A DNA stretch of 64,000 nt from Takakia lepidozioides. Its lineage: Eukaryota; Plantae; Bryophyta. How positions within the stretch are numbered: position 1 is the first letter of the stretch; each line of letters opens with the position of its first letter. Below the pieces are notes generated by a model. The model did no database searches. It was not told where the DNA came from and saw nothing but the letters and a program-made list of their open reading frames with translations. The translations under genes and the position numbers were made by a program. This document shows, piece after piece, positions 19,874-60,742 of this stretch. The stretch lies in the NCBI GenBank assembly GCA_030704615.1, contig CM060734.1, positions 44,888,001-44,952,000 on the forward strand. The letters are read 5' to 3'.

Positions 19874-19874
19874 A

Positions 19875-20190: not shown

Positions 20191-20192
20191 GC

Positions 20193-28508: not shown

Positions 28509-28596
28509 AAGGCTGCCGGCATGGGAAGCATCTCTTGGTTTGTCGGAGCTCTCAAGGATTCCTCGGGCTCCGACTCCTCGGATTCCTCCCGCTCTC

Positions 28597-35506: not shown

Positions 35507-38500
35507 ATGAGTTCCCCTCGCCCATGCGGAGGACTTCCAATTAATCACCCCTGTAGACAGAACACCCGAGATGACAGGTTGTGGGAAAGAGAAGTGGCAC
35601 GTGCCCGAGCCCTTGGGCTTTCAAGGATGCCATGCCCATGTGAACGTTGTTTGGGCACTACAAGTAGATCTGAGGACGGTGTGCGCACACATCTCCTTCA
35701 CCACAAAAGACATGAAGCATTTCGGGTGTGGATTGGAGATGGACCTGCAGACGAAGACGATGAGGAGTGGGCACAATTGGACAATGCACACCCCCGAGGG
35801 AGCCATACAGACAGGCCAGACGAGGACTATGTCATGGGCGCAGGACATGAACCAGGCATGGACGGAGGGGTGGAGATTACTCGAATGTTGCAGGAAGCAT
35901 TCCACATCATGGACGATGCTGAAGAGGGGGACGGCGCTGCGACAACTGGGGATGGTGATGACGCAGGAAATGAAGGCATTCACGTGGGGGAAGGCGTGGA
36001 AGGAGGTGGAGATGGAGAATTGAATTCTGCACACATGACACTAGAAGAAGCATGTGTGCCACTGTACGAGGGATGCAAATCCACAAAGCTTGCTGCCACC
36101 ATGCTGTTGATGAACCTGTGCACAACCCACGGTGTCTCAGACCATTTTGTGGACGAGTTGTTCTCTTTGCTTCGGCTGAACTTGCTTCCACAACCAAATG
36201 AAATGCCAAAAAGCTGTCACATGGCCAACCAAATGATTGGGAAGCTCGGCCTCAACTACGTGAAAATACATGCATGTCCAAAAGGACATGTACTTTTCAG
36301 AAGAGAGTACAAGGATGCTATGGAGTGCCCCAAATGCGGTGCAGCCCGATACCATGATGTGGGCAGGTTACAACAGCCAGCCAAGGTGTTGAGGCACTTT
36401 CCCCTTATCCCCCGTCTATTACGAATGTACAAATGCAAGACCATTAGTGAGCTCATGACTTGGCATTCCAGGAATGCCTCAAACGATGGTTTGGTAAGGC
36501 ATGTCCCAGATTCCCTTGCATGGAAGCATATAGATGCAACTTGGCCCGATTTTGCCGAGGACCCACGCAATGTGCGATTGGCTGTATCTACGGATGGAGT
36601 AAACCCATACGGATCAAAGAGTTGCACATGGTCCACATGGCCCGTGCAGTTGGTGGCATACAACCTGCCACCATGGTTGACAACAAAGAAATTCTTTGTC
36701 ATGTTGTCTCTCTTGATTCCAGGCAAGGAGTCCGTGACAAATGCAAACATAGATGTGTATTTGCAACCATTGATTGAAGAGCTACAGGAACTATGGATTG
36801 GAGTTGAAGCTTACGACATTTTGAAACCAGTAGGGCAACGGAGTTTCACCCTCCGTGCCATACTCATGTGGTCAATCCACGATTTCCCCGCATATGGCCT
36901 TGTTGCGGGTTGCAAGACGAAGGGCTACAAAGGGTGCCCCATTTGTGGGCCCTATGTGGATTCACGGCACTCAAAGCCACTAGGGAAGACAATATACATG
37001 GGGCATCGACGTTACCTTGCAAGAAACCACCCCTACCGACGAGCAGGAAGGCACTTCAATGGATGTGTTGAAAAGAGAATGGCACCAAATGCTGTGACAC
37101 CGGAGGAGACATTGCAATTTGCAAAGGAGAAAGAGGCGTTCATGGAGATTGGAGGGAGAGACGGAAGTAGTGCGGATCCAGCCATGGAGCACGGGGTGAA
37201 GCGCCGGACAATCCTTTGGGATTTGCCATACTGGAAGGTGCATGAATCCCCCCCCCCCATTCACTCACTTTCTTTCACATTGTGCTTCCTGGAATTACCT
37301 TTACTGTCAGGAGTCCTTCCACCAACTCCTAAGTCAGTGTAACTACTATGCAGTAGATGTTGAAGTCGTACACCTCACTGTGGAGAGGATCGTGGAGTTG
37401 TTGAAAGCAGAATGTAGTAACATGGACAACTTCTGCCACATATTCTACTTTTTTTGCCCATAGAACTTGGTCTCATGGGAGGACATTTGGCATTTCAGAA
37501 CCTCTTGCAGCGGTACCTCCTGGACCCCATGCATTGTGAGAAGAACTTCTGCGAGAACATTCTGAAGACTATCTTTGGGGAGAAGGATACGATAAACGTA
37601 CGAAAGGACATGGAGATTGAAGGGATACGGTCACATCTGTGGCTAAGGCCTGATCCAAATAGACCAGGCAAAGTGCTCATGCCAGCAGCATCATACGTCC
37701 TGACCAAATCAGAGCAAGAGGATTTTTTGAAGACATTGGGAGCCATGAAAGTGCCAACCGGATTCTCGGGTGCTTTCCAAAAGCATGCCATAAACAAGAA
37801 ATGGTCGGGGATGAAGTCACATGATCTACACGTGATGATGCAACAGATTTTGCCAGTGTGCATTCGGGGTACGATGGCGCCAGGTCCTCGAACAGCCATA
37901 ATGCGTGTAAGTCGAGTGTTTAGGAAGATTTGTGCGAAGGTGTGGGATCCGAGGGACATTACATCGTTGCATGAGGATGTGGCTATGACCCTATGTTTGC
38001 TGGAGAAAGAATTCCCTCCATCATTCTTTGACGTCATGACGCACTTGCTAGTGCATCTTGTAGAGGAGTTGCATGTGTGTGGGCCCGTAGCCAGCCGGTG
38101 GATGTACCCCATGGAGAGGTACATGAAGGATCTGAAGGGGTATGTACGCAACATGGCACGGCCAGAGGGGAGTATGGCGGAGGGCTACATCCGCGACGAA
38201 GCCCTGGGCTTCATGACAGAGTATATGTCTTCATTTGATGCAATACAACGACGGGTGTGGGACGAGAACGAGGAAGAAGGAGTTGTAGGCGAGGTCCTAG
38301 AAGGTGGTGGAACAAAGCGTGCCATGAGCCCGCGCCTTCGGGATGTGGCACATGATTATGTGCTGAACAACACAACAACCATGACACCATGGAGACAGTG
38401 GGTGCCAACTTACATCCCTCCTGTGCTATTCTTAATGGTCTTTGTATGCTGGAATTACATATATATTGTCACAAGTCATTCCGGCCACTATGGGAGTGGG

Positions 38501-39582
38501 ATCGTGTACTAACAGGGTGCTTCAGACGACTACAGAGGGTGTTTCGTAGATCTTGGTTGTTGCTTGCAAGTGATTATGAAGTAGGCTGCATCACTACAGT
38601 GTGCTTGAAAGGACACACACTCTGCATGTGGCATGCATGTACAGCACGGTGTTGGTCAGGGGGACTGAGTTGCAGCTTCTATTTGGTTTCTGCCAGAAAG
38701 TACGCAGCGGAGAAGGTCCGCCTGAAAACGGAACGGAGTGCATTTGCAAAAGCATGGCGGAGGGGCGGTCGTAGGCGCAGATCCCCGGTGGAGTACCCCA
38801 CAACAATGGAGGAGCTGCAGCCCTTTACAGTGTGGGTCAGATCTGCAATTGCAGTGTACGCATCAGAGAACGAGGACCCAGATGAGGGCATGGTGAGTCT
38901 GTCATTCCCCCCAGGGCTGATTGCCACTTCGTACCGGTCAATGAAAGCATATGGCAATCACTATAGAGTGGACGATGCCAACACCAGCCTCCTGGTGACT
39001 TATGACAGCGGAGTGGCATCATTTTTTGAACAAGAGAGTAGGAGCTGTGCACGAGATCAGAATCCAATTTCATGCCATGTGCAATATGTAGGAGTGATCA
39101 AAGAGATCCTTAAACTAGACTATGGTCTTGTGAAGCCAATTCTATTCCGTTGTTCTTGGGTAAAAGCCAATATGGTAGGAGAGAATGCCACCATGAAACG
39201 GGATGAGTACGGGTTCCTCCTTGCTGATTTCAGAAAAATGCTACCACAAGATGAAGAGCCATTCATCTTCCCATCGCAAGTTGAGCAAGTTTTCTTTTCA
39301 GATGACACCCATGCGCCGGGATGGAAGGTGGTTCTTCACAAGGACCCCCGGGCCAAACGAGTCGTGGCCGACGTCCATGATCTGGACCTAGGGGAGAATG
39401 CCGACCACGAGGGTCTGAGGGAACCACGAAATCTACCAGATACGGCCGAACCAGTCTCTTTGGAAGGAGCAGTTACCTTTAATGAGGAAGACATTCCAGG
39501 GTTGGTAATTACCGCAAGGCAAATTGCAGATGTGGGTAGTGAAGGGGAAGATTATTTGGATATAGATAGTGAGCCCAGCTGA
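35507..39582 (+). CDS. En/Spm TnpD-type transposase; 3 exons (35507-37237, 37499-38397, 38697-39582), ~1171 aa, apparently intact
   Basis: CPCERC, IHACPKGHVLF..CPKCGAARY, LAVSTDGVNPY, YNLPPW, SIHDFPAYG, LDPMHCEKN, GMKSHDLH, RWMYPMERY, EPFIFPSQVEQVFF. GT/AG junctions preserve the frame. Confidence 0.92.
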
Positions 39583-41929: not shown

Positions 41930-42565
41930 CTATCCCAAGCAGTGTGGACACAACCAATCTCCGTTAGGAACCTTCTCAAGAGGTGGTGTCAAGCATCCCA
42001 TATGCCAACCCCTTGAGCATCGATCACACACCAGCATGGTGGCTGCCCCTTTGGCAGACCCACAGAGCATGCACCTCAAACCTGCAGGTACCACTGCCAA
42101 GTTTGGGTCAACTCTGCCATCGACATTGGGAAGGTGACATAGCGCACAATTACGCACATGGTCCTTCCAAGTCATGCCATCCCGACCCTCCAAGATCAGG
42201 ACCCCTGAGGGCAACACCTCTCGAACCCTCAGAATAACACGCCCTGCAGTAACATCCAGAGTCGTAGGAGCAGTCTGCTGCAAATAAACATAGTCACCAG
42301 GGCTAAACCTCCGAACCCCAGGACGATATCCTCCACCACGTATAGTGGCATACCTCAACGTATCACGGTGCTGTGCAATGGCAAGGTTCTCAAAAGCCAT
42401 GGGCATGACTTTCTTGAACAACTCTGTACGCTGATCACATGCACGTACCCACACGTCCGGATCGTCAAGGTTAAGGACTTGAGCAGTGTCCCTACGAATG
42501 GCTGCAGGCAAATCCGGCTCTCGGCCAAAAAGAAGGAAATATGGTGAGAAGGAGGCAAGTGACAA
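41930..42565 (-). pseudogene. Integrase C-terminal region with PHD finger (DNMT element)
   Basis: FSPYFLLFGREP (end of the rve core), FSPGDYVYL, CMLC..MLVCDRCSRGWHMGCLTPPLEKVPNGDWLCPHC (C4HC3). Confidence 0.88.
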
Positions 42566-42799
42566 GAAGTCAAGGTCGGCGTGGCCGAATGCATGGTAGG
42601 TGAACATGAATCAAGATGATCTTTATAACAATGGACAAGAGTACAAAATACTGGAACTCGACTCGGATACTGGAATGCTGGAAACTGGACTGGATACTGG
42701 AAGCTGGACTGGAGTACTGGACTTGGAACAAGAGTAGCTTGAACTTGTGTTGGCGAGACTGAAGAGTGTCCAGTCTCACCTTCTATATATACTGGCTAC

Positions 42800-43680
42800 T
42801 AAGATGCTTCCCCAATGTACGAAATACTCAAGACGTTTATACTTGATGCGAGGGTCTAGGACTTCGTCGACTTCATACTCAATTTCCTGATTGACTTTGA
42901 TTGGTGGAGGTGGTACGGAAACTCTCCCTGGAATATTCGATGGATGATACAACTCCAATAGTGAAACATGAAAGACTGGATGGATGCGCATATTTCGTGG
43001 GAGTTCCAGCCGAAAACTGACCGGATTTATTTGTCGAATAATTTTGAAAGGTCCCAGGCGTTGATAATCCAACTTCTTTGATGGTCGCGAGGTTTGTATG
43101 TCCCGTCGAAGAAGCCACACACGATCTCCGACCTTGAACTGGGGTTGGAGTTGGCGACGTTGATCTGCATACTCCTTGTATTGTTTTTGAGCTTCTGCGA
43201 GGTGGGATGTAAGCTCCTTGTGAATCGTAGCAACATGAGTAGCAAGGTTTTTTGCAGCAGGGCTTCCAGCAGTTTTCATGTGGACATGGTTTACTCGAGG
43301 ATGATCACCATAATTGGAGAAAAATGGAGTTTGTTTGGTCGAAGAATGTATAGTGTTATTGTAGGCAAACTCAGCCACTGACAGAAGGTCCGTCCAATTA
43401 TCTTGGTGATAATTTATCGTACAGCGAAGATACTGCTCCAAACTCTGGTTTACACGTTCGGTTTGACCATTAGTCTGTGGATGATGAGCTGTAGAGAGGT
43501 TGATCTTAGTATCCAATATGTGAAATAACCCCCTCCAGAAATTTGATATGAACTGTGGTCCTCGATCAGAAACGATGTCCTTCGGGAGTCCATGAATGCG
43601 GTAGATATTATTGAGGAAGAATCTTGCAGTTTCCTCGCCGGTAACCGTTTTATTACATGGAATGAAATGTGTCGCATTGA
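42800..43680 (-). pseudogene. Fragment of a second chromovirus integrase and the start of its chromodomain
   Basis: HFIPC..IVSDRGPQF..STAHHPQTNGQTERVNQ..LGPF..IHPVFHVSLL..EYEVDEVLD..YFVHW; sequence distinct from the 24170 integrase. Confidence 0.88.
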
Positions 43681-43795
43681 ATGCAAAATACGTACTGCTT
43701 AATAAGCACGAGTGCGAAACCATTGAACTACCGTTATCGTTCTGGCATCATAATTGTTATTTGTAATTCGTTTTTACTCATCCCTACTTTGATCA

Positions 43796-45130
43796 ATGCA
43801 GCAAGAACTGGCAGAGGCAGCTGAGACGGGGAAATCCGAATACTACCGCACTACAACAGAGGAACTTAGGACATCAAAGGGTGTGGAGGCAGCAATAAAG
43901 AAGGAGTATGAAATCCGGAGAACCAAACTGATGTCCGCCTTCTCTAAGCAGCTTAGAATAGTAGATCCTAGCCTTGGAGAGGAGTTCCTTCTGCAGATCA
44001 AATCTCACTATGACAAGCATGTGCACCCGGAGATGCAGCAGGAGAAATTGCACCGGCTGGCCATCTCCATGGTTGACCCCCAAACCAAAATTAGATGGTT
44101 GGAGATTTGGAACTCAGATCAGACAGTGAAGGACTTGAATCAGGTCCCTAAGAGCACTATACAGCCTGGCACAAAGGTGGAGGGAATCAGTGATATTGTG
44201 TTTGACAACTGACTTCACAAGGCTACATTTTGGAGTCAGGTGTGTATTCATTGAAGTTTCATCTTTGTTGACTTCATGAATGTAATGACTAACTTATTTG
44301 CAAAACTGACAAATGTACCCTTTGCAGCTGAAGAAGCGCGCCATCCTTGTGCTCGAGCAGAATTTGAAGGACTTGAATATTTCTATTGTTTCCCCGCCTC
44401 AAATGACATTGGAGGCATACATCAGAAAGTGGAGAGGTCTCACTTGGCGATACTGTTTTTTCCGGGAGTTTTCGAAGGATGGTAACATTTTGCGGTCCAA
44501 CAACTTTGACAGTCAGGTTGGGGGGGAGTGGGCCATGATGCGAGTTGTGTACAATTGCATTTCCAACTAGAAACTATATTGCATCTTGTGAGAAATCCTT
44601 AGGCGTTGTTAGAAGGGCTCTTCACTGATAGGAGGTGAATGTCGGTGCCGACATTCACTTCCATGGCTGTGAGCCCCTATGGACAGAGATTTCATTCACA
44701 TGGATTAGGGAACTTAGGGTGTGTTGGCAGTGTTCTTGAATGGAATTTTGTGAATGTCGTTGACGACCATCACATCCAAAGCTATTGTGAGCTTCTATAC
44801 CGAGAGATTTCTTGTACGTTTTCTAGGGTGCCCAATAGTTATATGCAGTGTTACTCTCACGAATTTTCTGAATGTCGGTGCTGACATTCACTTTGAGAGC
44901 AATGGGCTTCTGCATAGAGAGATTGATTTCCAATTTGTCTCGTGGTTTGCAGGTACACAAAATATGTGCTGATGGATGGAAATCACCTCAGTGGTGTCCC
45001 AGATTATCTTGACATGTGGTCGGACCCGGGAAACGATCCAACCATATATACTTCAGGGATATTGAAGGACTGGAGTCCTGCACACTTTGTCAAGGACGAG
45101 AACATGACAGAACACAAACAAGAGATCAGA
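43796..45130 (+). other. Unidentified spliced gene-like fragment
   Basis: 138-aa ORF plus exon-like segments with AG/GT sites (about 44329-44515 and 44953 onward); no family recognised. Confidence 0.3.
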
Positions 45131-45134
45131 CTAG

Positions 45135-45788
45135 ACTCCTCATGGGCATGCCGCACTAACCGTGCACGCTGTGTGGGGTGAGGCACAATCCTCACCCGAC
45201 CATCCTCCCACACTCGAAGTAGGTGTATCCCCTCCCACTTGAACCTCTTGGCTCGTTGCAGGATCCGATCCCTCTCCCTGGCAGTCACAGTGGCTGTCGT
45301 GTCTCCCTTGCGGAGGTAGTCCAACACAGCCAAATCCTCATGTATAACTCTGGCACCACCTGGCTCATCACTAGCCTCAGGGTCCTCAGACACTCCGTCT
45401 ACAGTCATCCCTGTTGTAGGTCCAACCTGACCTCCCGATGCCAAGATACACAAAAATGCAGATGCGTACCATCCCGACACCATCTCCTCGTCCGTCTCAC
45501 CATACCACCGAGCTCCAGTGTCATCCTGCTAGCTCGTGCATGGATTGCGACTCAATCCATCCGCATCCCGATTGACCAAACCCGGTTGATGCACAACCTG
45601 AACATGTCTCTCATGCTCCTCCACCATAGCATGAGAGGCAAAGCAATTCCTGTAAGCCTCAGGAACCGCCGTATACGTCGTCTCTCTCCTCTAGTGACAA
45701 TAGGTCCATTGTTAGGCTCCCAATTGCCCTTCGTAACTGCAACCTTAAGTCCAGCAAACTTAGAGGTAGAGGACGCGTCCCGTGGTTG
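45135..45788 (-). pseudogene. Deleted RT/RNase H remnant and integrase N-terminus (DNMT element, - copy)
   Basis: Aligns to 57078-58979 with two large internal deletions; retains DADGLSRNP and RLVRHAHEE. Confidence 0.85.
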
Positions 45789-46016
45789 CTATGCCGCAAC
45801 CTCTTGAGCAGTACTCCCTGCCTGCTCAGTCAATGACAAGGCCTCATCCTGCCCCATCATCTCATCCTTGAGGACCTCCTCAACCCGAGAAGAATCCCCA
45901 ACCTCATCCATTACAGCCGCCTTGGCTGCCAACTCCCTCTGAACCTCGAGCACCTCCCACGTGTGCCATGGATGCATGCACCCTGTGGTCCTCACATGCT
46001 CGCCCCCACTCACTGC

Positions 46017-47360
46017 CTATACCGTCTCGGTAGGCAGAGAGACCATCAAGGGAAGTGTACTCCACACTCTGTGTTGCTCAGCCATAGCCAAGCTGATAAT
46101 CCAGGTCAAGCAATTGAGATCCATTGTTTGCCCCAACACTTGACGACGTGATGCCTCAGAAAGAGACGACACTGCCGTGATACCAGTGGTAAAACCCATA
46201 GCCCACTCTCGCTCGTCGGCATTAGGCTCCACTAACTGTTGCAACTGAGCATCCCACAGGAGGCCAGGTCCGCTATCCCGGAAAGCATGCGATCCTGGGA
46301 AGCTGAGCAGTGTAGGTAGTGCTGCTTGTGGTCGACCCACCTTGTTGACCACTGCCAAAGGCGAACGGTCATCGTGTCTCACACACTGAGACTGCCTCCC
46401 TGTGTCCAAAATGCTATCCACTGTGAGGTGTGCTGGCCGCTGCACCCCATCAAATGCACGCTTAAGCAGTGCGGGTGACATCAAGTTAGTCCACCATAAC
46501 TGTGGACGATGAGCCCGTGACCCCACTGCAACTGCATCCAGCAACACTGCTGACCCAAGCCATGACCGGACTTGATGCACACTGGCCATCACCCTGGTCC
46601 AAGAATTGCCCATCAGTGGTACATTCTCCAAGATGTATGCTGGAGATACAGCTTGATGAAGCTGCAAGTGGCGCAAAACCCGCACCATCACCCAAAACAG
46701 ACCCGACCTCGAGTCTCGCAATCCATTGCCATGCCCGGCTGATGAATGCCCTTGGCAGGGCCAACCTGCCACTACCAGATCAATGGAGCCAACCCGCTCC
46801 AAATCCTGCGCCCCCCACAACGAAATGTTTTCTGGCAAAGCCTGCTGATATCCACGAATTGCAGAAACCGACAACAACTCAGGGTACCGCTGCACCAACT
46901 GAGCAACATGGCGAAGTGAAACACGTCGTGCAGTCTCATCCCTCTCCACATACAGGTAACGCCGAACTCGTACACCTGCTTGTAACACAGCAGCCAATCC
47001 GGTGCTGATCCCGCCAAACAAGTCCAGAAGACAAATCCCTTCATCCGGATACTGCCACACAATAGGTGTGGTGTCCAATGGAGACAACTGAGGTGGTCCT
47101 GGTGCAATCCCCGCACTCTCATCCTCTCCTGACGGTACAAAAGCCTCCACCCAGGCTTGTTGCACCCGTCGATCAGCATCCCGCTGCAAATCCTTGCTCG
47201 TGCCCCACAATGGAGTCTGAGCAACCATGGTAGGCAACTCCGCCATACCATACATGTCATCCTGCTCTCCCGGAGGTGGCACATCCTCTGAATGAGCGTT
47301 GCCCTCAAGCAACTCTCTAGGCCAACTCACTGCCGCTATGAATGCTGCTAGTGTCGGCAT
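46017..47360 (-). CDS. DNMT3-like C5 cytosine DNA methyltransferase domain of the retroelement polyprotein (domain uninterrupted)
   Basis: Motif I LDLFGGIS, II YVERD, IV AGWPCQGHS, VI ILENV, VIII RAHRPQLWWTN, IX EREWAMGF, X RRQVLGQ. Confidence 0.92.
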   Translation of the reverse strand: MPTLAAFIAAVSWPRELLEGNAHSEDVPPPGEQDDMYGMAELPTMVAQTPLWGTSKDLQRDADRRVQQAWVEAFVPSGEDESAGIAPGPPQLSPLDTTPIVWQYPDEGICLLDLFGGISTGLAAVLQAGVRVRRYLYVERDETARRVSLRHVAQLVQRYPELLSVSAIRGYQQALPENISLWGAQDLERVGSIDLVVAGWPCQGHSSAGHGNGLRDSRSGLFWVMVRVLRHLQLHQAVSPAYILENVPLMGNSWTRVMASVHQVRSWLGSAVLLDAVAVGSRAHRPQLWWTNLMSPALLKRAFDGVQRPAHLTVDSILDTGRQSQCVRHDDRSPLAVVNKVGRPQAALPTLLSFPGSHAFRDSGPGLLWDAQLQQLVEPNADEREWAMGFTTGITAVSSLSEASRRQVLGQTMDLNCLTWIISLAMAEQHRVWSTLPLMVSLPTETV

Positions 47361-47366
47361 CTTGCC

Positions 47367-49932
47367 TCATTGGGCAACCGCAACTCCTCCTCTAAACGTC
47401 ATAGGGAGCTGCACACGCCGGCCATCCCTTAACTGCCATGCAGGCCTATAGAAAGCTGACTCCTCCCAAAAATCGAGGGTGAAGCCCATGGGATACAACA
47501 CTGCCCTACCAACCAGGACATCGTATGAGACCGCGTCTGTCACAATGGCCTTGGCTCGCATCACTGAGCCATCTGTAGGGTGATCCGGCCGTAGTCTGAT
47601 AGCCAACTCACGCCGTGTCATGCCCGAGCCTGCTCCGATCCTCCTAGAGACGTCTGTATCTGGAAAGGACAAGGCTCCATATCCGCCTCCGTGAGGCCCA
47701 AGCCTGCAATAGCAGCTCTGCCCAGCATCAATGGCTGAGCTCCCGAGTCCAACAAGACCCGCAGTGGCCGGTACCTCTTGCCTGCCGGTCCACTCAAACA
47801 GAAAATGTCATCCTGGTTGTCTAACATGACAACTCCAGGTGTCACCATGGCGCGCTCAATGGCTGGCCTAGCTGGCAGCTCCATCAACCTGGCAGCTGCA
47901 GCTTGCCATGGCGCCGCCGTGGCAGTCTTGACCCTCAAATCCGAGGATCCCTCCGGCACTACACCTCCCACTATCTCCGCAGAAGATGAAGTAACCTTCC
48001 CACTATCACAGAGTGTAGCTGCCAGCCTGAACACCTCAGCTGGTCTTACCCCCGGCGTCGCAATCATGGTAGCCGAGAACAATGGAGCCTGGCACATAGA
48101 TGTGGCCGCTCATAGCAGCACACTAGCTGCCGTAGCCTTAGCAACACTAGGTAGTGGTGCTACCCGTGTAGCTCTCCCCAATGACATAGTAACCTCCGCC
48201 TCGGTAACAGTCGGGCGAGAACTATGTACCATGGATGGCGTCGACACTGTCTCCGCCAATGTGAATGACTGAGGAAGCCTAGCCTGATGGCTTGCCTCCC
48301 CACGCTGTGGATCCAACTCCACCTCTATACCTCGTGGCTCAAGAACTCGTGCTGCTCCTCGAGTCACGGCTGCAGCAGACTCCACCTGCACTAGTGGTAG
48401 TGCTGCTCCACACATGAATCCCATGCCTCCCATATCTCCTCCCTCAGGAGGTGGACCATCCGGCCTTAGAGCCGGTACCACCTGAGCTGTAGTCATGGCA
48501 GCGAGCCTCTGCTCTAGCTGCTGAAGCCGGTTGGCCATGCCTTGGTCAACACCCTGACCTCCGCGTCCTTGGCCATGTTGAGCTTGCCCTTGGCCTGCAC
48601 CTCGTGGCTGGCCACCTCGCCCCCGGCCACCATTGTTCCCTTGGAACTGGCCTGGGCGCAACTTAGGATGCAAACCATAACACTGGGCCTCTCCATGCCC
48701 GTGCTTGCCACAATGCCTACACTGCAACTGTGCAGGCTGTGCATATGCCGGCCCTTTGCCTCCCTCTGAGCAATCCTTCTTGACATGGGGTCCTCCACAT
48801 GTCCAGCACACCACATCCGCCGTTGTTGGCCAGCAATGAAGGGAGAGACCCCTGCATCTGAGGTCCTCTCTGCCCTTCCCTGAGCTTCACATGAGCCCCC
48901 TTGTTGCCTTGAGCACGTTGAGGTAGTGGTTGGCTAGGAGCACCACTACCCCGTGGTGTCTCCTTAGCAAATCCCACCATGACCACTCGTTCCTCCACCA
49001 TGTTGAGCTCTATCCGCTCTGCCAGCAAACACATTTGCTAAGGTGGGTTGGGCGCTTGTAGGAGAGTTGCATCCCGCACCCTTCTCCTTAGCTCCTTGTC
49101 CAATATCCCATACCAGAATTGGACTGCCTGAGCTTCCGTAACCCCTTGGTTACATTTATCAAGCGCCTCATGCGAGTGAAAGCCTCCCTCATGCTCTCGG
49201 TCGGCTTCTGTTGGAACTCTTGCAAGCTCCGCAACTTCTCTGTCCTCACCCCTTGGTAGTTCCCTCTCAATTCTTCGAAGAACTCCACAACAGGGTTGAA
49301 GGCAGGCACGGGTACTAGTGCTGGTGTGGTAGTGGCTTGGGTGGATGTCGTAGCTACTGTACCACCAGTCCCACTAGTCCCACTGCTACTCACTGAAGCT
49401 GCCGGTGCAGCGGCAGGTGTAGCCACTGCCCTCGTGGCTCTAGTGCCCCTAGTGATGGAGACATAGTCGGTGACCAGTACATCCTCCACTCCTCGATCTC
49501 AACCTCATGCCCCCGCCTGAACTCATGGTAATCATCCATAGGCGGCCCCTCAAGGTGCTGAAACAGCCCCTTCCATGCCATGAAAGGCGTAAATAGTTGT
49601 GGATTGCGCATTTGCTGCAAATCACACCAACTATCAAACTCTTGGATAAAATCATCCAACTCGATGGTGCCCACCGCCCCAGAGTACCTTCGTGGCCCCT
49701 TGGTAGCTCCATACATCTCCTCCATTGTGTCCCACAACAATGGCAAAGAAACAACTTGCACCGCCGGTATGAGTCCTCTTGATTCACAATCCGAATCAGA
49801 ACCTTCCGTAGAAGACACAGGAGGTGAAGGTGGCCTAAACCGCACACCTTGTCTCGTGTACCCACTAGTATCGCTAGCGCTCGAACCGGCACTGTCCCCA
49901 GCAACTAGTGGCACCTCCGTGTTGACACTCAA
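47367..49932 (-). pseudogene. Gag (two zinc knuckles) and aspartic protease of the DNMT element, with frameshifts and stops
   Basis: YSGAVGTIELDDFIQEFDSW, FQQKPTESMREAFTR, CWTCGGPHVKKDC, CRHCGKHGHGEAQC, VLLDSGAQP, YDVLVG. Confidence 0.85.
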
Positions 49933-50169
49933 CCGTCATGAATATGTCCCTAACCCCCTCTCCACAAGGTAACCGGGTAGAGAACCTGTTGCGGCTTATG
50001 GTTTGGAATACTAAGTTCCTAACATAGCCTACACCTGTACTTGCATGACCATGGTATATCATGAAGATACTCCTCAAACCGCCCTCCACGAGCTTCAAAA
50101 TTCGGCCTTCAAGACCACATGCCAGTCCTTAGGCAGTCCACTAGTGCCTCCACGAGTCAGCACAGGCCG

Positions 50170-51250
50170 TCCACAGGTCAACCGGGCCACCACAGACCAG
50201 CACAGGCCCCACAGCTCACTGGTCACAGCCGTCACAGTCCCACAGGCCACTGGGCACAGCCTGTCACGGCCTGTCACAGCCCCACAGGCCACAGGGCACA
50301 GCCCCGCACAGCCGTCACAGTCCCACAGGCCACTGGGCACAGCCTGTCAGCCTGTCACACCCACAGCCCACAGGCCACAGGGCACAGCCCCGCACAGCCC
50401 GTCACAGCCCCAAAGGCCTCAGGCACGGCCTTCACAGCCCTCACAGCCCCTCACAGCCCTAAAGGCCGGGCACAGGCGGCACAGCCCCCACAGCCAAAGG
50501 CCTCAGGCACGGCCTGACATAGCCCCTCACAGTCCGTCACAGCCCCAAGCCTCAGGCACGGCTTGTCACAGCCCCTCACAACCCCTCACACCATGCCCCA
50601 CAGGCCCACTGGGCACAAGCCTGTCACAGGCCCCTCACAGCCCGTCACAGCTTGCCACACCCCTCACAAGCCCCCAGGGCCTCAGGCACGGCCTGTCACA
50701 GCTTCTCAACAACAGCCCATCACAACAGCCCCAAAGTCCCTCAGGCACGTCCCTCAGAACATCCCGTCACAGCCCGTCACAATATCTTGCCACAACAGGC
50801 CCCTCACCAGCCACCACAGCCCCCAAGGCCTTAGGCAACGGCCTGTCACAACTTCTGCTCACAGCCCGTCACAGCCCCAACGGCCTCAGGCACGGCCTGT
50901 CACAGCCCACTCACAACCCATCACAGCCCCAAAGGCCACGGGGCACACACATCCTGTCCACAGTCCCTCACAGCCCGCACAGCCCAAAGCCTCAGGCCGG
51001 CCTGTCACACATTCGCCCCTCAACAAACCCCTCACAAAGACAAAGCCCCAAAGGCCATGTGCACAAACCGCCGATCACAAGATCACACACACAGCACAGC
51101 GCCCTCCAAATCACAATCCCCTCCAACATACCCCAGCCCCCACAAGCCACTGGCACAGCCTGTCACAGCCCCTCACCAATCCGCCAGAGGACCCCCTTCA
51201 CACCCGCTCCGACGGCCCCCGGCAACACGCCCTCACAAACCACACACAAA
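50170..51250. repeat. Degenerate ~10-bp-based tandem array (GTCACAGCCC / CACAGGCC) in the element 5' leader
   Basis: Visible periodicity; mirrored at 54470-54940. Confidence 0.9.
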
Positions 51251-52831
51251 AGCCCCATCCATGGCCGCTCTGGCAGTTTAGCCATTTCTCCAAGGGGTTT
51301 AGCCACGCCAAGCTAGGGTTGTGTCTCTTGGACTCTAGGCTTCTTTCCACCGAGCTATGGCGGCTGTGAGGAAATCAGCAAGGTCTTTCGGCTCCCACAC
51401 AAACCACCCATAGTAGCCCTAAGCCATGAGGTGGTTGCCCACAAACCAAGCCTTCTTTCTCACTTAGCCTCCCCAAACCACCGCCACTAAACTCAATGGC
51501 AAACAACCAAGGCCCTGTGGTTCCCAGCCCTTGTGAACACTCATTCAAGCTTTCTCCTTGGCCATAGCATCTGTCTTAGAGCCTATTCTAGCCCTCTACA
51601 CCTGCTGCTTCAAGAGTTGCACTCCCTTCAGCTTGAAGTTGAACCCCAACTCACATAGGCCCTACAAGTGCTTTTCTTTCATTTCAAGTGGAAACCAGCC
51701 CTAGACCTTCCGTTCTAGCTCTCTAAGCTTGAAAACAAGAGCCTCAATGGCTGAAGGCATGCTCCACACATGCCCTAACTCTCACCATAAGAGAAATCAG
51801 CTCCTTTGCTTCATTTCTTGCACCCACAAACCTGAAAATACAAGCTTCAGCAGGTTGAAAGCATGCTCCACATGCCCTACAGGGAACCAGCCCTTCCTTC
51901 CTTTCTTGCACTCTCCAACACCTGAAAGTGCAAGCCTTCACCAGGCTGATAGCATGCTCCACACATGCATTGCCCTCACATAAGGAAGTCAGCCTTCCTC
52001 TCCTTGCTTGCCCTCCAAGCTTGAAGATGGAGCTTCAATGAGCTGAATACATGCTCCACACATGCAACCTCTTCACACAAGAGATATCATCCCCCTATCT
52101 TTGGCTCCTTGGCTCCTTGATGCTCTCTAAGACAAAGACTAGGACTCCACACTTTCCACAGCCCTTGCCAAGCTCCTGAAACCCTAAGGCTATATTTCCA
52201 GCCACAAGACACTCCTCTTGTGGTGCAAGAACTTTTCTCCAAGCTCTGAAACCCTAGGTGCACATTCCAGGCTTTGCCGCACCTCTTAGCTCCTGTTCCA
52301 GCCCCGCTCTTGGCCATGGCAAGAGTCCTCATACGCTAGAGTTTCAGATTGAACCCCCAACTCAACATAGCCACAAATGCATTGGCTTGCATACAAGAGA
52401 AATCAGCCATCTCTTTTCACTCAGACCTCCTTATGAGCTTGAAGTTGGAGCTCTCCCGATAACTGTGACGTAGATTTAACACCCTCGTAGCCTCCACATT
52501 GCTGCACTCCTTACTTGGCCCTGCAGCTGAAGAGACGACCACCAGTTCACCCCACTCGAGAACCAGCATCTCCCCCGCTTCACACTAGAAGCCCAAACTT
52601 GGTTGCCATAGCATTGAGCTATGCAACGCCGCTCTTCAACATAGACTCTACCCTTCCAACCCCTCTCTATCCATTGCAAACCTGCAACCTGTTCGCCTTT
52701 GCACTCTATCCACTTTGGATAGGCTCATGCACGGATCCCTGCACTCTAGGCTGAACCGCTTCTCATGAAAACACAAGTGCTACAAGCACTCGAACCTGGC
52801 ACTCATATACTCGAGCTGATCTTTCTCAAGT

Positions 52832-53147
52832 GATAAAGAAGAAATACAAGCACGAGCTCACAAATCTGAAGCATAAACTCATGCATATATAACCTCATCA
52901 CTCACATACAAGTCAAGCCAAGTGCACCCCACGCCATGGGGAATCCACACTACGGCGCCATAGCCTAGGCGCGGTGAGCCTCAACTCGAGAAAATGAGCC
53001 TCCCGCGCTTGCCGTGAAGATAACCACTCTCCAGGGCCTAAATCTGCCTTGACCCCTGGATTGACACTTGGGCCAATCCCAAATATCAATATGTAAAAGC
53101 TAGCTATTTCCTAGCTAGTTTCACACTAGTGGTAAGATAACTTGACA
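52832..53147 (-). repeat. Terminal repeat A1 (5' terminus; TATA-like TTATATAT at ~52885-52892)
   Basis: Begins TGTCAAG on the minus strand; matches A2; not followed by B. Confidence 0.9.
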
Positions 53148-54469
53148 ACTCGCATGAGCTCGTGCTTGTATTCTGTCTTTTTTTACACTCGAGAAAGATG
53201 AGCTCGTATCTGTGATTGCAGATACGAGTTTCTTGGTTAGCACTTGTGTGTTTTCAGATGAGAAGCAACTCAGCTTAGAGTGCAGGGATCAATGCATGAG
53301 CCTATCCAAAGCGGATAGGGTACGATGGCGAACATGTTTAAGGTTGCAATGGATATAGAGGCGGCAGCCTGTGTTGAAGAGCGTGTTCATAGCTCAACGC
53401 TATGGCAGCCATTGTAGTGAGTGTGGAGCTGCGAGGGTGTTTAGATTGCAAATCACAGTTATCCGGGAGCTCCCAACTTCAAGCTCATAAGGAGGTATGA
53501 ATGAAGAGAGATGGCTGATTTCTCTTGTATGCAAGCCAAAGCATTTGTGGCTATGTTGAGTTGGGGGTTTCAATCTGAAACTCCAGCGGTAAGAGGGCTC
53601 TTGTCATGGCAAGAGCAGGGTTGGAACAGGAGCTAATAGGTGTGGCAAGGCCATGGATGCCCCTAGGTTTCAGAGCTTGGAAGAAGAGCTCTTGCACCAC
53701 AAGAGGATGTCTTGTGTCTGGAAATGTAAGCTTTAGGGTTTCTGGAGCTTGGCAAAAGCTTGTGGATTGCTTAGTCTTGTCTTAGAGAGCATCAAGGAGC
53801 CAAGATAGGGGGCTGATACCTCTTGTGTGAAGAGGTGGCATGTGTGGAGCATGTATTCAGCTCATTGAAGCTTCCATCTTCAAGCTTGGAGGCAAGCAAG
53901 GAAGAGGGAACGGCTGACTTCCCTTATGTGAGGGCAATGCATGTGTGGAGCATGCTTTCAGCCTGTTGAAGGCTTGTACTTTCAGGTTTGGGAGTGCAAG
54001 AAGATAAGGTAAGGGGCTGATCTGTTCTTATGTGACAGTCCGACACTTGTAGAGCGTGTTCTGAGTTGGGGTTTCAACCTCAAGCCTAGATAGAGCATGG
54101 CTCTTGAAGTGGCAGGTGTAGGGGGCTGGAATAGGCTCTAAGACAGATGCTATGGCTAATGAAAACGCTTGAATGAGTGCTCACAAGGGCTGGAAACCAG
54201 CAAGGCTTGGTTGTTTGCCATTGAGGTTAGTGGTGTGTTTGGGGAGTCTAAGTGAGAAAGAAGGCTTGGTTTGTGGCAACCATCTTCCTCATGGCTTAGG
54301 GCTACTATTGGTGGAGTGTGGGAGCCGAAAGAGGAAGAATACCTTGCTGATTTCTTCACAGCCGCCATAGCTCGGTGCAAAGAAGCCTAGAGTCCAAGAG
54401 ACAACAAACCCTAGCTTGGCGTGGCTAACCCCTTGGAGAATGGCTAAACTGTCATGAGTGTGGCCATGG

Positions 54470-54940
54470 ATGGGGCTGTGATGGGTTGTGATGGGCTGTG
54501 ACAGGCTGTGGTGAGCTGTGACAGGCTGTGACGGGCTGTGCCCTGTGGTCTGTGGGGCTGTGACAGGCTGTGCCCTAGCTTGGCGTGGCTAAACCCCTTG
54601 GAGAAATGGCTAAACTGTCATGAGTGGCCATGAATGGGGCTGTGACGGGCTGTGACAGGCTGTGGCGAGCTGTGACCGGCTGTGATGGGCTGTGATGGGC
54701 TGTGGCGGGCTGTGACAGGCTGTGCCATGTGGCCTGTGGGGCTATGACGGGCTGTGACAGGTGCTGTGCCCTGTGGGCCTATGGGGCTGTGAGGGGCTGT
54801 GAGGGGCTGTGACAGGCTGCGGCCTGTGGGCTATGACCCTGTGACCTGTGTGAGGGCTGTGACAAGCTGTGGCCTGTGTGGGGCTGTGACGGCTGTGACC
54901 AGTGATCTGTGTGGGCCTGTGCTGGTCTGTGGTGGCCTAT
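54470..54940. repeat. Tandem array (GGGCTGTGAC) in the leader of the + copy
   Basis: Reverse complement of the 50170-51250 array, shorter. Confidence 0.9.
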
Positions 54941-55029
54941 GTTGACCTATGGACGACTTGTGCTGACTCGTGGAGGCACTGGTGGACTGCCTAAAGACTG
55001 GCATGTGGTCTTGAAGGCCGAATTTTGAA

Positions 55030-57077
55030 CATGGAGTTGTCATGTTAGACAACCAGGATGGCATTTTCTGTTTGAGTGGACCGGCAGGCAAGAGGTACCG
55101 GCCATTGCGGGTCTTGTTGCACTCGGGACTCAGGCCATTGATGCTGGGCAGCTGCTATTGTAAGCTTGGGCCTCACGGAGGCGGATATGGAGCCTTGTCT
55201 TTTCCAGATACAAACGTCTCTGGGAGGATTGGAGCAGGCTCGGGGCATGACACGACGTGAGTTGGCTATCAGACTACGGCCGGATCACCCCACAGATGGC
55301 TCACTGATGCGAGCCAAGGCCATTGTGACAGACGCGGTCTCGTACGATATTCTGGTTGGTGGGGTAGTGTTGTACCCCATGGGCTTCACCCTAGATTTTT
55401 TGGAGGAGTCAGCTTCCTATAGGCCTGGATGGCAGTCAGGGGAGGGTCGGCGTGTGCAGCTCCCTATGACATTCATAGGAGGAATTGCGGTTGCCCATCG
55501 AGGCAAGATGCCGACACTAACAGCATTCACAGCTGCAGTGAGTTGGCCTAGAGAGTTGCTTGAGGGCAACGCTCATTCAGAGGATGTGTCACCTCTGGGA
55601 GAGCAGGATGACATGCATGGTATGGCGGAGTTGCCTTCCATGATTGCTCAGACTCCATTGTGGGGCACGAGCAAGGATTTGCAGCAGGTTGTGATCGACG
55701 GGTGCAACAAGCCTGGGTAGAGGCTTTTGTACCATCAGGAGAGGAGGAGAGTGCGGGGATTGCACCAAGACCACCTCAGTTGTCTCCATTGGACACCACA
55801 CCTATTGTGTGGCAGTATCCGGATGAAGGCATTTGTCTTCTGGACTTGTTTGGCGGGATCAGCACCGGATTGGCTGTTGTGTTACAGGCAAGTATACGAG
55901 TTTAGCATTACCTGTATATGGAGAGAGATGAGACTACACGACATGTTTCACTTCGCCATGTTGCTCAGTTGGTGCAGCAGTACCTTGAGTTGTTGCAGGT
56001 ATCTGCAGTTCGTGGATATCAGCAGGCCTTGCCAGCAGACATTTCGTTGCTGGGGGCGCAGGATTTGGAGCGGGTTGGCTCCATTGATCTGGTAGTGGCA
56101 GGTTGGCCCTGCCAAGGATATTCATCAGCCGGGCATGACAATGGATTGTGAGACTCGAGGTCGGGTCTGTTTTGGGAGATGGTGCAGGTTTTGCGCCACT
56201 TGCAGCTTCATCAAGCTGTATCTCCAGCATACATCTTGGAGAATGTGCCACTGATGGCGATTCTCGGGCCAGGATGATGGCCAGTGTGTATCAAGTCCGG
56301 TCGTGGCTTGGGTCAGCAGTGTTGCTAGATGCAGCTACAGTGGGGTCACGGGCTCATCGTCCACGGCTATGGTGGACTAACTTGATGCCACCCGCACTGC
56401 TCAAGCGTGCATTTGATGGGGTGCAGCGGCCGGCACACCTCACAGTGGATAGCATTTTGGACACATGGAGGCAGTCTCAGCGTGTGAGACACGATGACTG
56501 TTCGCCTTTGGCAGTGGTCAACAAGGTGGGTCAACCACGAACAGCATTACCTACACTGCTCAGCTTCCCAGGATCGCATGCTTTCCGGGATAGTGGACCT
56601 GGCCTCCTGTGGGATGCTCAGTTGCAGCAATTAGTGGAACCTAATGCTGACAAGCGTGAGCGGGCAATGGGTTTTACCACTGGTACCACGGCAGTGCCGT
56701 CTCTTTCTGAGGCATCTCGTCGTCAGGTGTTGGGGCAAGCAATGGATCTCAATTGCTTGACCTGGATTATTAGCTTGGCTATGGCTGAGCAACGCAGAGT
56801 GCGGAGTACATTTCCCTCGATGGTCTCTCTGCCTACCGAGACGGTACAGGCAGTGAGTGGGGACGAGCATGAGAGGACCACAGGGTCCAGGCATCCATGG
56901 CACACGTGAGAGATGCTCAAGGTTCAGAGGGAGTTGGCAGCCAGGGCGGCGGTGATGGATGAGGTTGGGGATTTTTCTCGGGTTGAGGAAGTCCTCGAGG
57001 ATGAGATGATAGGGCAGGATGAGGCCTTGTCATTGACTGAGCAGGCAGGGAGTACTGCTCAAGAGGTTGCAACATAG
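55030..57077 (+). pseudogene. Protease and DNMT3-like methyltransferase of the + copy (stops and frameshifts)
   Basis: VLLHSG (degenerate DSG), LDLFGGIS, AGWPCQG, RAHRPRLWWTN, RRQVLGQAMD. Confidence 0.88.
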
Positions 57078-58989
57078 CAACCACTGGACGCGTCCTCTAC
57101 CTTTAAGCCCACTGGACTTAAGGTTGCAGTTACAGAGGTCAATTGGGAGCCTGACATTGGACCCATTGCCACCGGAGGAGAGAGACAACGTATACGGCGG
57201 TTCCTGAGGGCTTACAGGAATTTCTTTGCCTTCAGTTTGAAGGACTTGGGAGCACTGAAGGGTCAAGAGATTCGTATTGAGTTGGCCACTGACACGCCAA
57301 TCTTTCGGAGACCCTATAGATACAGTAACATGAAGAGGTCTTTGATTCATATGAGGACTCAAGATCTCTGGGAGGCTGGTTTGGTGGAGCTCTCTGGTGG
57401 AGAGTATGCTTCAGCCACAGTGATGCCAGCCAAGAAGGATGTCTATGGCAATTGGACGGAGAGACGTATGTGCGGTGATTACCGGCTTGTAAATCGTCAG
57501 ACCAAGTCCGATAAGTATGCCATGCCAACACTAGAGGAGATCTTTGATGCCATCAGGCATACTAAGGTCTTTAGCACTTTGGATTTACGATCCGGATATC
57601 ATCAGTTGCCAATCAAGGAGGCAGACAAGCAGAAGACGACATTCTGGGGGTTCAATGAGCACGGCAAGGATTGCCTATATCAGTGGCGGTTCTTACCATT
57701 TGGGCTTAAGAATGCTGCTGCAGAGTTTCAGAGAGTCATGGATAGGATTCTAGCAAGGGTGGACTTTGCTTGGTGCTATATAGATGACATCATCATCTTT
57801 AGTGCTACGGTGGAGGAGCATGAGATACACCTTCAGGTGGTATTGGAGCGTTTGAGAGCACACGGATTGAAGTTGCATCCGGGGAAGTGCAAGTTTTCCC
57901 ACAACCAGATTGAGTATCTGGGTCACATGATATATCCTGGAGGATTGGGGGTACAGCAGACTAAGGTAGAGACCATTGCACAAATTCCACACCCAACGGA
58001 TGTGAGCCGAGTTTGAGCTTTCATGGGGTTGGCAAACTATTATAGACGGGTTGTCAAGGGATTTAGTGCCATTGCAAAGGCTCTAATCAAGCTGACCAAG
58101 GTGGACCAGGACTGGTAGTGGGAAGATAAGCAGGAACGAGTTTTTCAAGAGCTCAAGGCGAGGTTGACCTCGGCGCCTATCGTGAGACGACCTATCAGGG
58201 GGCGTCCCTTTCAGCTGCATACGGATTGGAGCATGCTGGGGCTTGGAGTGGTGCTCACATAGGTGGATGATGAGGGAAGAGAGTTCGTAGTGGCTTATAC
58301 TAGCCGCTCGAACAACGCTGCAGAGGCTAAGTATAGCTCATATGAGGGAGATTGCTTAGCTGCAGTGTGGGCCGTGACACACTTCAGGTGCTATCTATAC
58401 GACAATCTCTTCACCCTTGTCACGGATCACCAGCCACTCAAGTGGTTGATGGAGTCAGACAAGCTTACGGGGAAGCTTGCACGGTGGGCACTCGTACTCC
58501 AGGAGTATGACTTTCAGGTTGTGCATCGACCAGGTTTGGTCAATCGGGATGCGGATGGATTGAGTCGCAATCCATGCACGAGCCAGCAGGATGACACTGG
58601 AGCTCGGTGGCATGGTGAGACGGATGAGGAGATGGTGACGGGATGACACGCATCTACATTTTGTGTATCTTGGCATCGGGAGGTCAGGTTGGACCTACAA
58701 CAGGGATGACTATAGACGGAGTGTCTGAGGACCCTGAGGCTAGTGATGAGCCAGGTGGTGCCAAAGATATACATGAGGATTCAGCTGTGTTGGACTACCT
58801 CCACACGGAAGACACGACAGCCACTGTGACTGCCAGGGAGAGGGATCAGATCCTGCAACGAGCCAAGAGATTCAAGTGGGAGGGGATACACCTGCTCCAA
58901 GTATGGGAGGATGGTCGGGTGAAGATTGTGCCTCACCCCACACAGCGTGCACGGTTAGTGCGGCATGCCCATGAGGAGTTGGGGCATTT
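57078..58989 (+). pseudogene. RT, RNase H and integrase N-terminus of the + copy
   Basis: [70 protein letters not shown] (Ty3/gypsy RT-RH-IN order). Confidence 0.92.
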
Positions 58990-60444: not shown

Positions 60445-60660
60445 TTTTATTTTGAAAAAGGAAACACCTGGGTGCCACAGCCGCTCACAAATCAGGCCCC
60501 TTAGCGACAGGAGAAAATAACCTCTGTCACAGTAACCTTGCCATGAAGGAGTCCGAATTGGACACCCACCCAGGGAAGGTGGAGGAGCACATACCACACC
60601 CCTCAAGATAGCGGGATTTGACCCTAGAATCATCTAGGTAGCAGTCAGTGCAGTATCTAT
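60445..60660 (-). mobile_element. SINE copy in the duplicated dirigent 3' flank
   Basis: Reverse complement homologous to 6271-6496. Confidence 0.65.
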
Positions 60661-60742
60661 CTGACTGTTTCAACTACATAATTTCTCCAATTCATTATCT
60701 AACGTTCTTGGGACATGGTATAGCCCAAGCTGCACTACAGAG

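Follow-up and report, generated by a model that had tools for sequence, protein, structure and literature searches.

The genome of the moss Takakia lepidozioides contains a Ty3/gypsy-type retrotransposon that encodes its own DNMT3-like C5-cytosine methyltransferase (DNMT). The DNA analyzed here, termed the window, is a stretch of 64,000 nucleotides (nt; GenBank assembly GCA_030704615.1, contig CM060734.1, positions 44,888,001 to 44,952,000 of the forward strand), and it holds two dead copies of this element, one on each strand. The element belongs to a family found across mosses and liverworts, in which the methyltransferase is separated from the reverse transcriptase (RT) by a conserved stop codon. 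We propose, with a probability of about 0.58, that in active members of the family the methyltransferase would be made at the level of Gag and would methylate the complementary DNA (cDNA) of the element inside the particle, before integration.

The methyltransferase domain

The methyltransferase domain of the minus-strand copy lies at 46053-47072, within a frame that is open for 449 codons from stop to stop (46017-47366). An earlier note on this DNA, made from the letters alone, had described the domain as uninterrupted in this copy, and the frame confirms it. The Pfam family DNA_methylase, the search which that note had recommended, matches the frame at E 8.6e-11 (42.3 bits, with a cut-off of 22). 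Seven motifs, numbered by the usual C5-methyltransferase scheme, can be placed on the minus strand: I (47010-47027), II (46938-46952), IV with the catalytic PC (46749-46766), VI with ENV (46617-46631), VIII (46485-46511), the IX region (46191-46229), and X (46116-46136). They follow one another in canonical, non-rearranged order, as the note had read them, and because of this order the DRM arrangement is excluded.

The DNMT3-style labels given to two of the motifs hold in part. Motif VIII is of the HRxRxWxN type, which in the Marchantia gene Mp4g09160 reads HRARLWWTN. The second arginine of this motif is, as had been reported, replaced in the minus copy (HRPQ) and kept in the plus copy (HRPR); glutamine is also found at 13 of 60 family loci, and arginine at 46 of 60 and in Mp4g09160. 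The label ERxMGF suits the plus copy better, since the minus copy reads EREWAMGF.

By sequence and predicted fold, the domain is a genuine DNMT3-like C5-methyltransferase. Its top sequence match in the PDB is DNMT3A (E 1.6e-8). A structure model was built from a 16-row alignment and has a pLDDT of 87. In Foldseek, the best matches to this model are DNMT3A/3B (E 5e-18), and every listed row is a DNMT3. In VIA-align, the model superposes on DNMT3B with a Z score of 27.4 (rmsd 2.9, 279 aligned) and on DNMT3A with 26.8, while other C5 enzymes score lower (M.MpeI 23.7, M.HhaI 21.9, DNMT1 19.2, and ZMET2 17.9). Matches in the ESM Atlas are to generic DNA_methylase clusters alone, the first of which is from Streptophyta.

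The family in mosses and liverworts

The domain is not confined to the two window copies. Its homologues include 120 of near-equal length and 54 longer ones, and a metagenome scan gave 100 loci, of which the best 80 were kept; 64 of these are non-redundant at 99%. Named homologues come from Marchantia polymorpha, M. paleacea, Riccia sorocarpa, Calypogeia fissa, Sphagnum troendelagicum, S. tenellum, S. jensenii, S. fallax, and Closterium. Close relatives, with about 60-73% identity, are found in Marchantia, Riccia, Calypogeia, and Sphagnum, and those of Closterium are distant. No vascular plant occurs among the named homologues, and a scan of IMG/VR returned one pattern match and no relative. 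The earlier note's proposal that a retrotransposon-borne DNMT3-like enzyme has persisted in land plants is thus borne out, both by these homologues and by the constraint described below. The family is bryophyte-wide, however, and not the single surviving lineage that had been imagined.

The domain order is stable across the family. Among non-redundant loci long enough to be counted, the protease (PR) lies 5′ of DNMT in 37 of 45, and RT lies 3′ of it in 39 of 45. The integrase (INT) core, which is absent from the window copies, is present in 19 of 24 loci, and a PHD finger tail in 15 of 18. The full element reads Gag, zinc knuckle (ZnK), PR, DNMT, stop, RT, RNase H (RH), INT, and PHD, all in a single reading frame. 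In run X1, which may be where this DNA comes from, 67,800 contigs fell on 8.7 kb of the element region, compared to 9 on 3.5 kb around the host 3-ketoacyl-CoA synthase (KCS) gene, although such contig counts are not copy numbers. Depth was similar over gag, DNMT, and INT-PHD, and the KCS region lay within one contig that showed no difference to the window. Members of the family are numerous, and DNMT is a regular component of them.

Quick trees of DNMT and RT were made, with rows of fewer than 280 or 300 aligned residues omitted. Both trees split the bryophyte PR-DNMT-RT group from an RH-DNMT-INT group (99/99 for DNMT and 100/99 for RT). In the DNMT tree, loci L001 and L004 cluster with the named Sphagnum proteins, and the Closterium relatives sit on long branches. 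The window element falls outside the group formed by Calypogeia, Sphagnum, and Marchantia (98), a position that possibly reflects several old lineages or transfer between bryophytes.

The RH-DNMT-INT clade (99 in both trees) contains proteins P0151-P0163, P0166-P0168, P0170, and P0078 and loci L078 and L079. Here RT-RH-DNMT-INT-PHD stands in one predicted protein, which means that DNMT occupies two positions in related elements. Protein P0171 (1053 residues) combines a PHD finger, PCIF1_WW (Pfam PF12237), and a DNMT of the same type, and may represent a further mobile element, one that bears two domains related to methyltransferases. More distant neighboring elements lie in L037 (14637-16496) and L016 (1-1896), with RH and integrase at 55-62%; L037 also has an INT-PHD tail, at 43%.

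Selection on the methyltransferase

Ratios of nonsynonymous to synonymous change (dN/dS) were calculated by the method of Nei and Gojobori between the window copies and 62 non-redundant loci, with saturated pairs kept outside the ratio. The rough medians are 0.11 and 0.10 for DNMT, 0.10 for RT, 0.07 for RH, 0.16 for INT-PHD, 0.11 for gag, and 0.14 and 0.20 for PR. Measured from loci L007, L072, and L051, the DNMT ratio is 0.19-0.21. The neutral evolution that the earlier note had named as the outcome to look for is not observed: at about 0.10-0.11 between lineages, as for RT, the coding sequences show DNMT to be under purifying selection.

The catalytic residues tell a similar story. The catalytic cysteine is present in 58 of 58 loci and the glutamate of ENV in 56 of 59, and among diverse proteins, 14 of 15 keep the cysteine and 16 of 16 keep EN. 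The two motif VIII arginines are retained in 39 and 46 of about 60 loci, and their losses are those expected from methyl-CpG decay.

It is scarcely credible that the domain is a neutral passenger, that is, a host DNMT gene captured by chance or mis-assembled. The decay of both window copies would agree with such an origin, but DNMT stands at the same position in dozens of loci from several genera with a dN/dS of about 0.1, the DNMT and RT trees match, and contig depth is even across the domains.

Improbable, too, is the proposal that DNMT has been kept for binding and not for catalysis, either as a nucleic-acid clamp in the particle or as a DNMT3L-like decoy for host DNMT3. In its favor, the Klebsormidium enzyme showed no activity in yeast (PMC5890265). 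The target-recognition region is also unlike that of DNMT3A, and when close loci are compared, constraint on DNMT is weaker than on RT. Against this, the motif that binds S-adenosylmethionine (SAM), the catalytic cysteine, ENV, and the first arginine of motif VIII are kept in moss, liverwort, and distant lineages. Moreover, DNMT3L, which has lost SAM-binding and catalytic motifs, scores only Z 10.6-11 in VIA-align against the predicted model, compared to 27 for active DNMT3.

A conserved stop between methyltransferase and reverse transcriptase

In both window copies, the sequence TAG CAA CCA stands 87 codons past the DNMT domain, at 45783-45791 of the minus strand (stop at 45789-45791) and at 57075-57083 of the plus strand (stop at 57075-57077). 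It ends the first open reading frame (ORF1), which encodes Gag-ZnK-PR-DNMT. All 50 loci that cover the DNMT-RT linker, duplicates included, have a stop in it. Of 42 non-redundant loci, 41 share a single register for this stop, compared to at most 13 of 45 at any other linker. Among 40 non-redundant sequences (38 loci and the two window copies), 29 have TAG and 11 have TAA at this position, and 38 continue with CAR-YY, compared to 11 of 618 stops that arose by decay. In 32 of 43 loci, the reading frame before the stop continues unchanged after it. Seven annotated proteins from Marchantia, Calypogeia, and Sphagnum (P0123, P0124, P0128, P0122, P0028, P0092, and P0113) terminate 70-72 residues past the DNMT domain, and five models continue past the stop (P0126, P0129, P0131, P0134, and P0148); the two of these that were inspected, P0129 and P0148, skip the linker.

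Tobacco mosaic virus and further plant viruses use UAG-CARYYA as their readthrough context (PMC4132726). The stop and its context make it quite probable that RT-RH-INT-PHD is reached through leaky readthrough, so that DNMT would be in excess over RT and integrase. Because the stop between DNMT and RT is conserved, DNMT closes a Gag-protease-DNMT reading frame and is likely made at the Gag level.

The stop could instead be bypassed by splicing, as in Ogre elements, or by re-initiation, and either would be compatible with any role of the enzyme. In favor of such a bypass are an ATG two codons past the stop in 35 of the 40 sequences and the fusion of DNMT to RT without a linker in P0129 and P0148. 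This ATG is limited to one lineage, however, and is absent from the window copies, L007, L072, and L051, all of which keep CAR-YYA or a one-letter variant of it. The shared frame of the stop's two flanks also argues for readthrough, and P0129 and P0148 omit different stretches, as prediction artefacts would. Bypass by splicing or re-initiation therefore appears unlikely.

The PHD finger on the integrase

The C-terminal region of the integrase in the minus copy (41930-42562, minus strand) is 76% identical to Marchantia Mp7g09570 and ends in a PHD finger at 41939-42073 (Pfam PHD, E 6.2e-11). The nearest PDB matches of this finger are CHD4, KDM5A/B (KDM5-PHD1), PHF12, ATXR5, PHF21A, BAZ2, and AIRE. 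Many of these fingers read unmodified H3K4, and the finger of the element lacks Trp-x-His, the aromatic-cage signature of PHD fingers. The same H3K4-unmethylated histone state is read by the ADD domain of animal DNMT3. From these resemblances, it is slightly favored that the finger steers the integrase to H3K4-unmethylated chromatin.

A proposed role in methylating cDNA

In the mechanism that we propose, ORF1 would yield a Gag-protease-DNMT polyprotein with DNMT as its last domain, and occasional readthrough of the stop would append RT-RH-INT-PHD. The protease would free many DNMT molecules inside the particle, and its release of DNMT there is probable. New cDNA would be the nearest unmethylated substrate in the particle, and DNMT would methylate it. 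The chances are about even that new cDNA is methylated in this way, in which case the copies would carry marks on arrival, merge with methylated chromatin, and keep their own output low. The PHD finger would guide the integrase to H3K4-unmethylated chromatin, and a palindrome at an internal repeat joint termed B1-A2 (see the next section) would template both ends. That this palindrome gives the integrase its TGTC..GACA ends is conceivable, with the odds a little below even.

Several observations weigh against this reading. The KnitGypsy-Dnmt3 enzyme of Klebsormidium nitens did not methylate yeast DNA, although DNMT3B failed too and the authors considered the result inconclusive (PMC5890265). 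The DNMT tree holds element rows alone, with no host DNMT3 row, and within bryophytes it departs from the species tree. The dN/dS ratios are rough, since dS is near saturation (median 2.3-3.0, with 9 and 25 of 62 pairs saturated). In addition, the DNMT ratio is 0.59 between the window copies and 0.56-0.68 among close loci, where RT is lower (0.42-0.62); such near-copy values are as expected for dead copies that are decaying. Of the 40 stop sequences, which represent about four lineages, just 4 carry the strict CARYYA hexamer, 32 have CAA CCC, and 35 have the downstream ATG. No stable RNA structure was found 3′ of the stop in the window copies (z +0.75 and -0.07); in six relatives, z ranges from -1.0 to -3.4. 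Finally, the ratio of observed to expected CpG is 0.46-0.57 in the element compared to 0.87 and 0.96 in two other Ty3 elements, but it is 0.56 in a CACTA transposon and 0.47 in a long interspersed nuclear element (LINE). Because these are equally depleted, CpG depletion does not single out self-methylation.

An active enzyme might instead have chromosomal targets. Free Gag-level DNMT would then enter the nucleus and methylate integrated copies or nearby host chromatin, as a brake that ends bursts of transposition. The position of DNMT before the stop would yield far more enzyme than one cDNA per particle requires, and transitions between the window copies peak at CG (22 of 160, compared to 15 of 274 at CHG and 22 of 655 at CHH), as in methylated DNA. 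Self-limitation was raised as a possibility by de Mendoza et al. (PMC5890265). On the other hand, ORF1 has no targeting domain, the PHD finger lies on the integrase side of the stop, and host MET1, CMT, and DNMT3 suffice for the methylation of integrated copies in mosses (PMC6453930). We regard chromosomal targets as unlikely, and methylation of cDNA in the particle as the better account.

A wider picture can be drawn only tentatively, and we think it somewhat doubtful as a whole. The elements would form an ancient green-lineage clade with split repeats, in which UAG readthrough keeps an active DNMT3 at Gag stoichiometry and the PHD finger is of the type that reads H3K4me0. Copies would be born methylated, in silent chromatin, and where the family is abundant its enzyme would shape the methylome of the host.

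Split repeats and termini

By its proteins the element is of Ty3/gypsy type, but it is not a canonical long terminal repeat (LTR) element. A pair of identical direct LTRs is not its layout; in its place, split direct repeats in the order A..B-A-B are found in the window element and in three complete relatives (L039, L055, and L066). In the minus copy, the 5′ repeat A1 (52832-53147, minus strand) begins with TGTC, is 96.6% identical to A2, and has the flanking 4-mers GAGT/GAGC. The 3′ repeats (19708-20380, minus strand) are B1 at 20193-20380, A2 at 19874-20190, and B2 at 19708-19871, and a G-rich polypurine tract precedes B1. The termini of the element are TGTC..GACA, of the TG..CA type, and have decayed in some copies. 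Of 7 loci in which both ends are present, 6 show a perfect 4-bp target duplication; in the seventh, as in the window, 3 of the 4 letters match.

In the window, the B1-A2 joint forms the palindrome GACA-GC-TGTC (20187-20196). The same joint is found in L003, L015, and L055, with one-letter variants in L035, L039, L066, and L067. Directly behind A1, the window, L055, L066, and L025 all lack a tRNA primer-binding site (TGG...). Among 31 homologues scanned, there is no family of tyrosine recombinases, the enzymes that DIRS elements carry. The element differs from DIRS/Ngaro elements in this respect and in its target duplications.

In complete loci, only about 180 nt separate the end of PHD from B1. 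The 3′ untranslated region (UTR) of the window element, located 5′ of B1-A2-B2, aligns with that of L055. Two blocks in this region (window 20383-20550, L055 10058-10245), one of about 45 nt and the other, of about 50 nt, in front of the polypurine tract, are near-identical across lineages that are near synonymous saturation, and are likely to be functional RNA or priming signals.

Two origins of the split repeats were considered and set aside. An origin of A..B forms from one-LTR circles is rejected because L022 (B only) and L067 (B-A-B) share a flank, which points to recombination or to a collapse in the assembly. The cutting of a two-LTR circle at symmetric positions is disfavored because B precedes the 5′ A in no locus. 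Rearranged, inverted 3′ tails or A pieces occur near the repeats in L008 (6230-6342), L013 (6240-6352), and L045 (12572-13468); the inverted piece in L008 and L013 was examined as a nested insertion and is instead a 240-nt tail fragment.

The two window copies and their surroundings

According to the earlier note, the domain shares the frame of the protease and RT that flank it in both copies. This does not hold, since both copies contain frameshifts and stops, and the family-wide stop separates DNMT from RT regardless. The conserved stop, the PHD finger, the split repeats, and the nesting of the copies are additions to that note. The divergence between the two copies is 0.073 (Kimura two-parameter distance, K2P).

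The minus copy spans 53147-19708, or 33.4 kb, around a nested block of 21 kb. It begins with a long 5′ leader (49726-52831, minus strand) that contains a degenerate array of 10-nt repeats at about 50190-51200. The gag, zinc knuckle, and linker follow at 47800-49725, with several frameshifts and stops, and were placed by tblastn with Marchantia Mp4g09160 (41-79% identity). The aspartic protease (LLDSGA) lies at approximately 47450-47800 with a frameshift near 47622. Pfam Asp_protease_2 is found on the relatives P0137, P0138, P0140, and P0165, and a Pfam scan of the window's own protease piece gave no match. Two premature stops are specific to this copy, the plus copy being open at both: one in the protease-DNMT linker (47367-47369) and one 3′ of the DNMT domain (46017-46019). 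The ATG at 47360 sits behind the former and is not a natural start.

Beyond the family-wide stop, the minus copy has lost almost all of RT and RNase H. What remains at 45135-45788 is the N-terminal remnant of RT, the end of RNase H, and the start of the integrase zinc finger, with a deletion junction at 45602/45636; one contig of run X13 has about 1.28 kb extra between these two positions. A foreign insert, an integrase/SH3 piece of another Ty3 element, occupies 42563-45134 (minus strand) in place of the integrase core. The 21-kb nested block (20608-41896) lies inside the 3′ UTR and comprises a CACTA end (CACTAG near 20611), an LTR chromovirus, a LINE piece, and a CACTA transposase. Its boundary is marked by loose ends of run X6 at 41897, which match window 20591-20607. 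The remaining 3′ UTR (20383-20607, minus strand) contains blocks conserved with L055 and the polypurine tract (about 20383-20391).

The plus copy (53148-58979, plus strand) is truncated at its 3′ end after the start of the integrase, and retains leader, protease, a broken DNMT, the stop, and RT-RNase H. Its gag is deleted at 55029. Its DNMT (55795-56813) is broken by stops at 55903 and 56149 and by a 1-nt gap near 56256, and its RT-RNase H (57078-58630) has stops inside. At 19416-19707 (plus strand) stand the initial 292 nt of an A repeat. They are likely the 5′ end of the plus copy, interrupted by the minus copy, and the remainder of the repeat resumes at 53148-53185. The minus copy thus likely sits inside the 5′ A repeat of the plus copy. 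The leaders of this presumed nested pair are just 77-86% alike, and their A repeats are 96% alike. A preference for insertion into A repeats was also considered and not retained, because the window offers a single likely case, with 3 of 4 duplication letters and 10 extra nt.

Within the nested block are a LINE RT fragment (32026-33837), the CACTA transposase (35489-39582), and a young Ty3 chromovirus (22850-29006), whose LTRs are 1.5% apart and whose integrase has a chromodomain; its CpG ratio is the 0.87 given above. An inverted duplicate of a dirigent gene (4761-6531 and 60412-62175) is 99% identical over 1143 nt (K2P 0.011). Its two members are about 54 kb apart, with the entire transposon nest between them. 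An unclassified AT-rich inverted-repeat element with arrays rich in ATTCAATT lies at 15337-16926.

The host KCS gene (8823-10409, minus strand) was used for host placement, as the earlier note had advised. In a tree of 37 rows chosen among the 120 matches listed for this one paralogue-prone gene, it forms a group with Ceratodon (100/97) that is separate from liverworts and vascular plants, which indicates a bryophyte on the moss side.

Significance and comparison with known systems

Why a transposon should carry an enzyme that silences it has been a question since 2018, and such elements have so far been known from algae without genetics. The family described here occurs in mosses and liverworts, including Marchantia, where methylation mutants exist. 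Marchantia polymorpha has natural genes with all of the catalytic motifs, such as Mp4g09160, and self-methylation is therefore testable in a land plant. The conserved stop moves the methyltransferase to the abundant Gag side and away from Pol. From this arrangement, a particle is predicted to hold many enzyme molecules, and a specific readthrough that can be tested is predicted as well. The combination of split repeats, a DDE-type integrase, and 4-bp duplications with no tRNA primer site points to an undescribed replication route. A search tool that relies on LTR pairs would overlook such elements or give them a wrong label, and their DNMT domains may be entered in gene catalogues as methyltransferases of the host.

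In the literature covered, which leaves most subscription journals outside its scope so that an earlier mention is possible, no report was found of bryophyte retrotransposons that bear a DNMT or of the stop. The name KnitGypsy was found in PMC5890265 alone, and six Marchantia gene identifiers in no paper. Marchantia and Sphagnum are absent from the available supplements of PMC5890265, and Marchantia from its main text; Physcomitrella is one row of its species table. The account of DNMT retrotransposons is repeated for "streptophytes" in PMC12344493, PHD fingers in algal transposons are described in PMC8557442 and bioRxiv 2022.06.16.496473, and host moss DNMT3 is covered by PMC6453930.

Individual features have counterparts elsewhere. 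The domain resembles animal DNMT3A/DNMT3B and host plant DNMT3 in fold (Z 27.4), motif order, and the HRxRxWxN motif VIII. It differs from DNMT3A/3B in that identity is about 20%, PWWP and ADD are lacking, an extra helix follows motif II, the target-recognition loop is different, and the domain is part of a Gag polyprotein. The stop resembles tobacco mosaic virus-type readthrough (PMC4132726), with an in-frame stop, then CAA-CCA or CAA-CTA, and an open frame beyond, as well as the gag-pol stop of Candida Tca2 (PMC2194720), which is likewise in frame with an open frame beyond. In contrast to both, the stop described here comes after the protease and a captured enzyme and not after gag, and the largest subfamily has CAA-CCC. 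A Gypsy element of Chlamydomonas (Gypsy-7a_cRei; bioRxiv 2022.06.16.496473, PMC8557442) also has an accessory PHD finger, proposed to affect insertion, but methyltransferase and split repeats are absent from the description available.

Two retrotransposons with DNMT3-type domains and split repeats have been described in PMC5890265. SymbioDIRS-Dnmt3 of Symbiodinium performs de novo CG methylation in yeast, and its capture was independent according to the authors. It is a DIRS element, whereas the bryophyte element has a DDE-type integrase, TG..CA ends, and target duplications. KnitGypsy-Dnmt3 of Klebsormidium nitens has DIRS-like repeats, in which A1 and A2 flank the ORFs and two B repeats flank A2, and an intronless, non-rearranged DNMT with Ka/Ks <0.2 that lies in the Pol ORF together with RT and RNase H. 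Compared by description alone, it shares with the bryophyte element a DNMT3-like domain in a Gypsy-type element, split repeats, and purifying selection. A PHD finger, a 4-bp duplication, and a readthrough context are not mentioned in the textual description covered here. The bryophyte family differs in that it occurs in mosses and liverworts, is abundant, and has a conserved stop that parts DNMT from RT. Judged by its genes and repeats, the element is a land-plant variant of the KnitGypsy-Dnmt3 kind, classed as a variant because DNMT and RT are not in the same ORF and its LTR layout is non-canonical.

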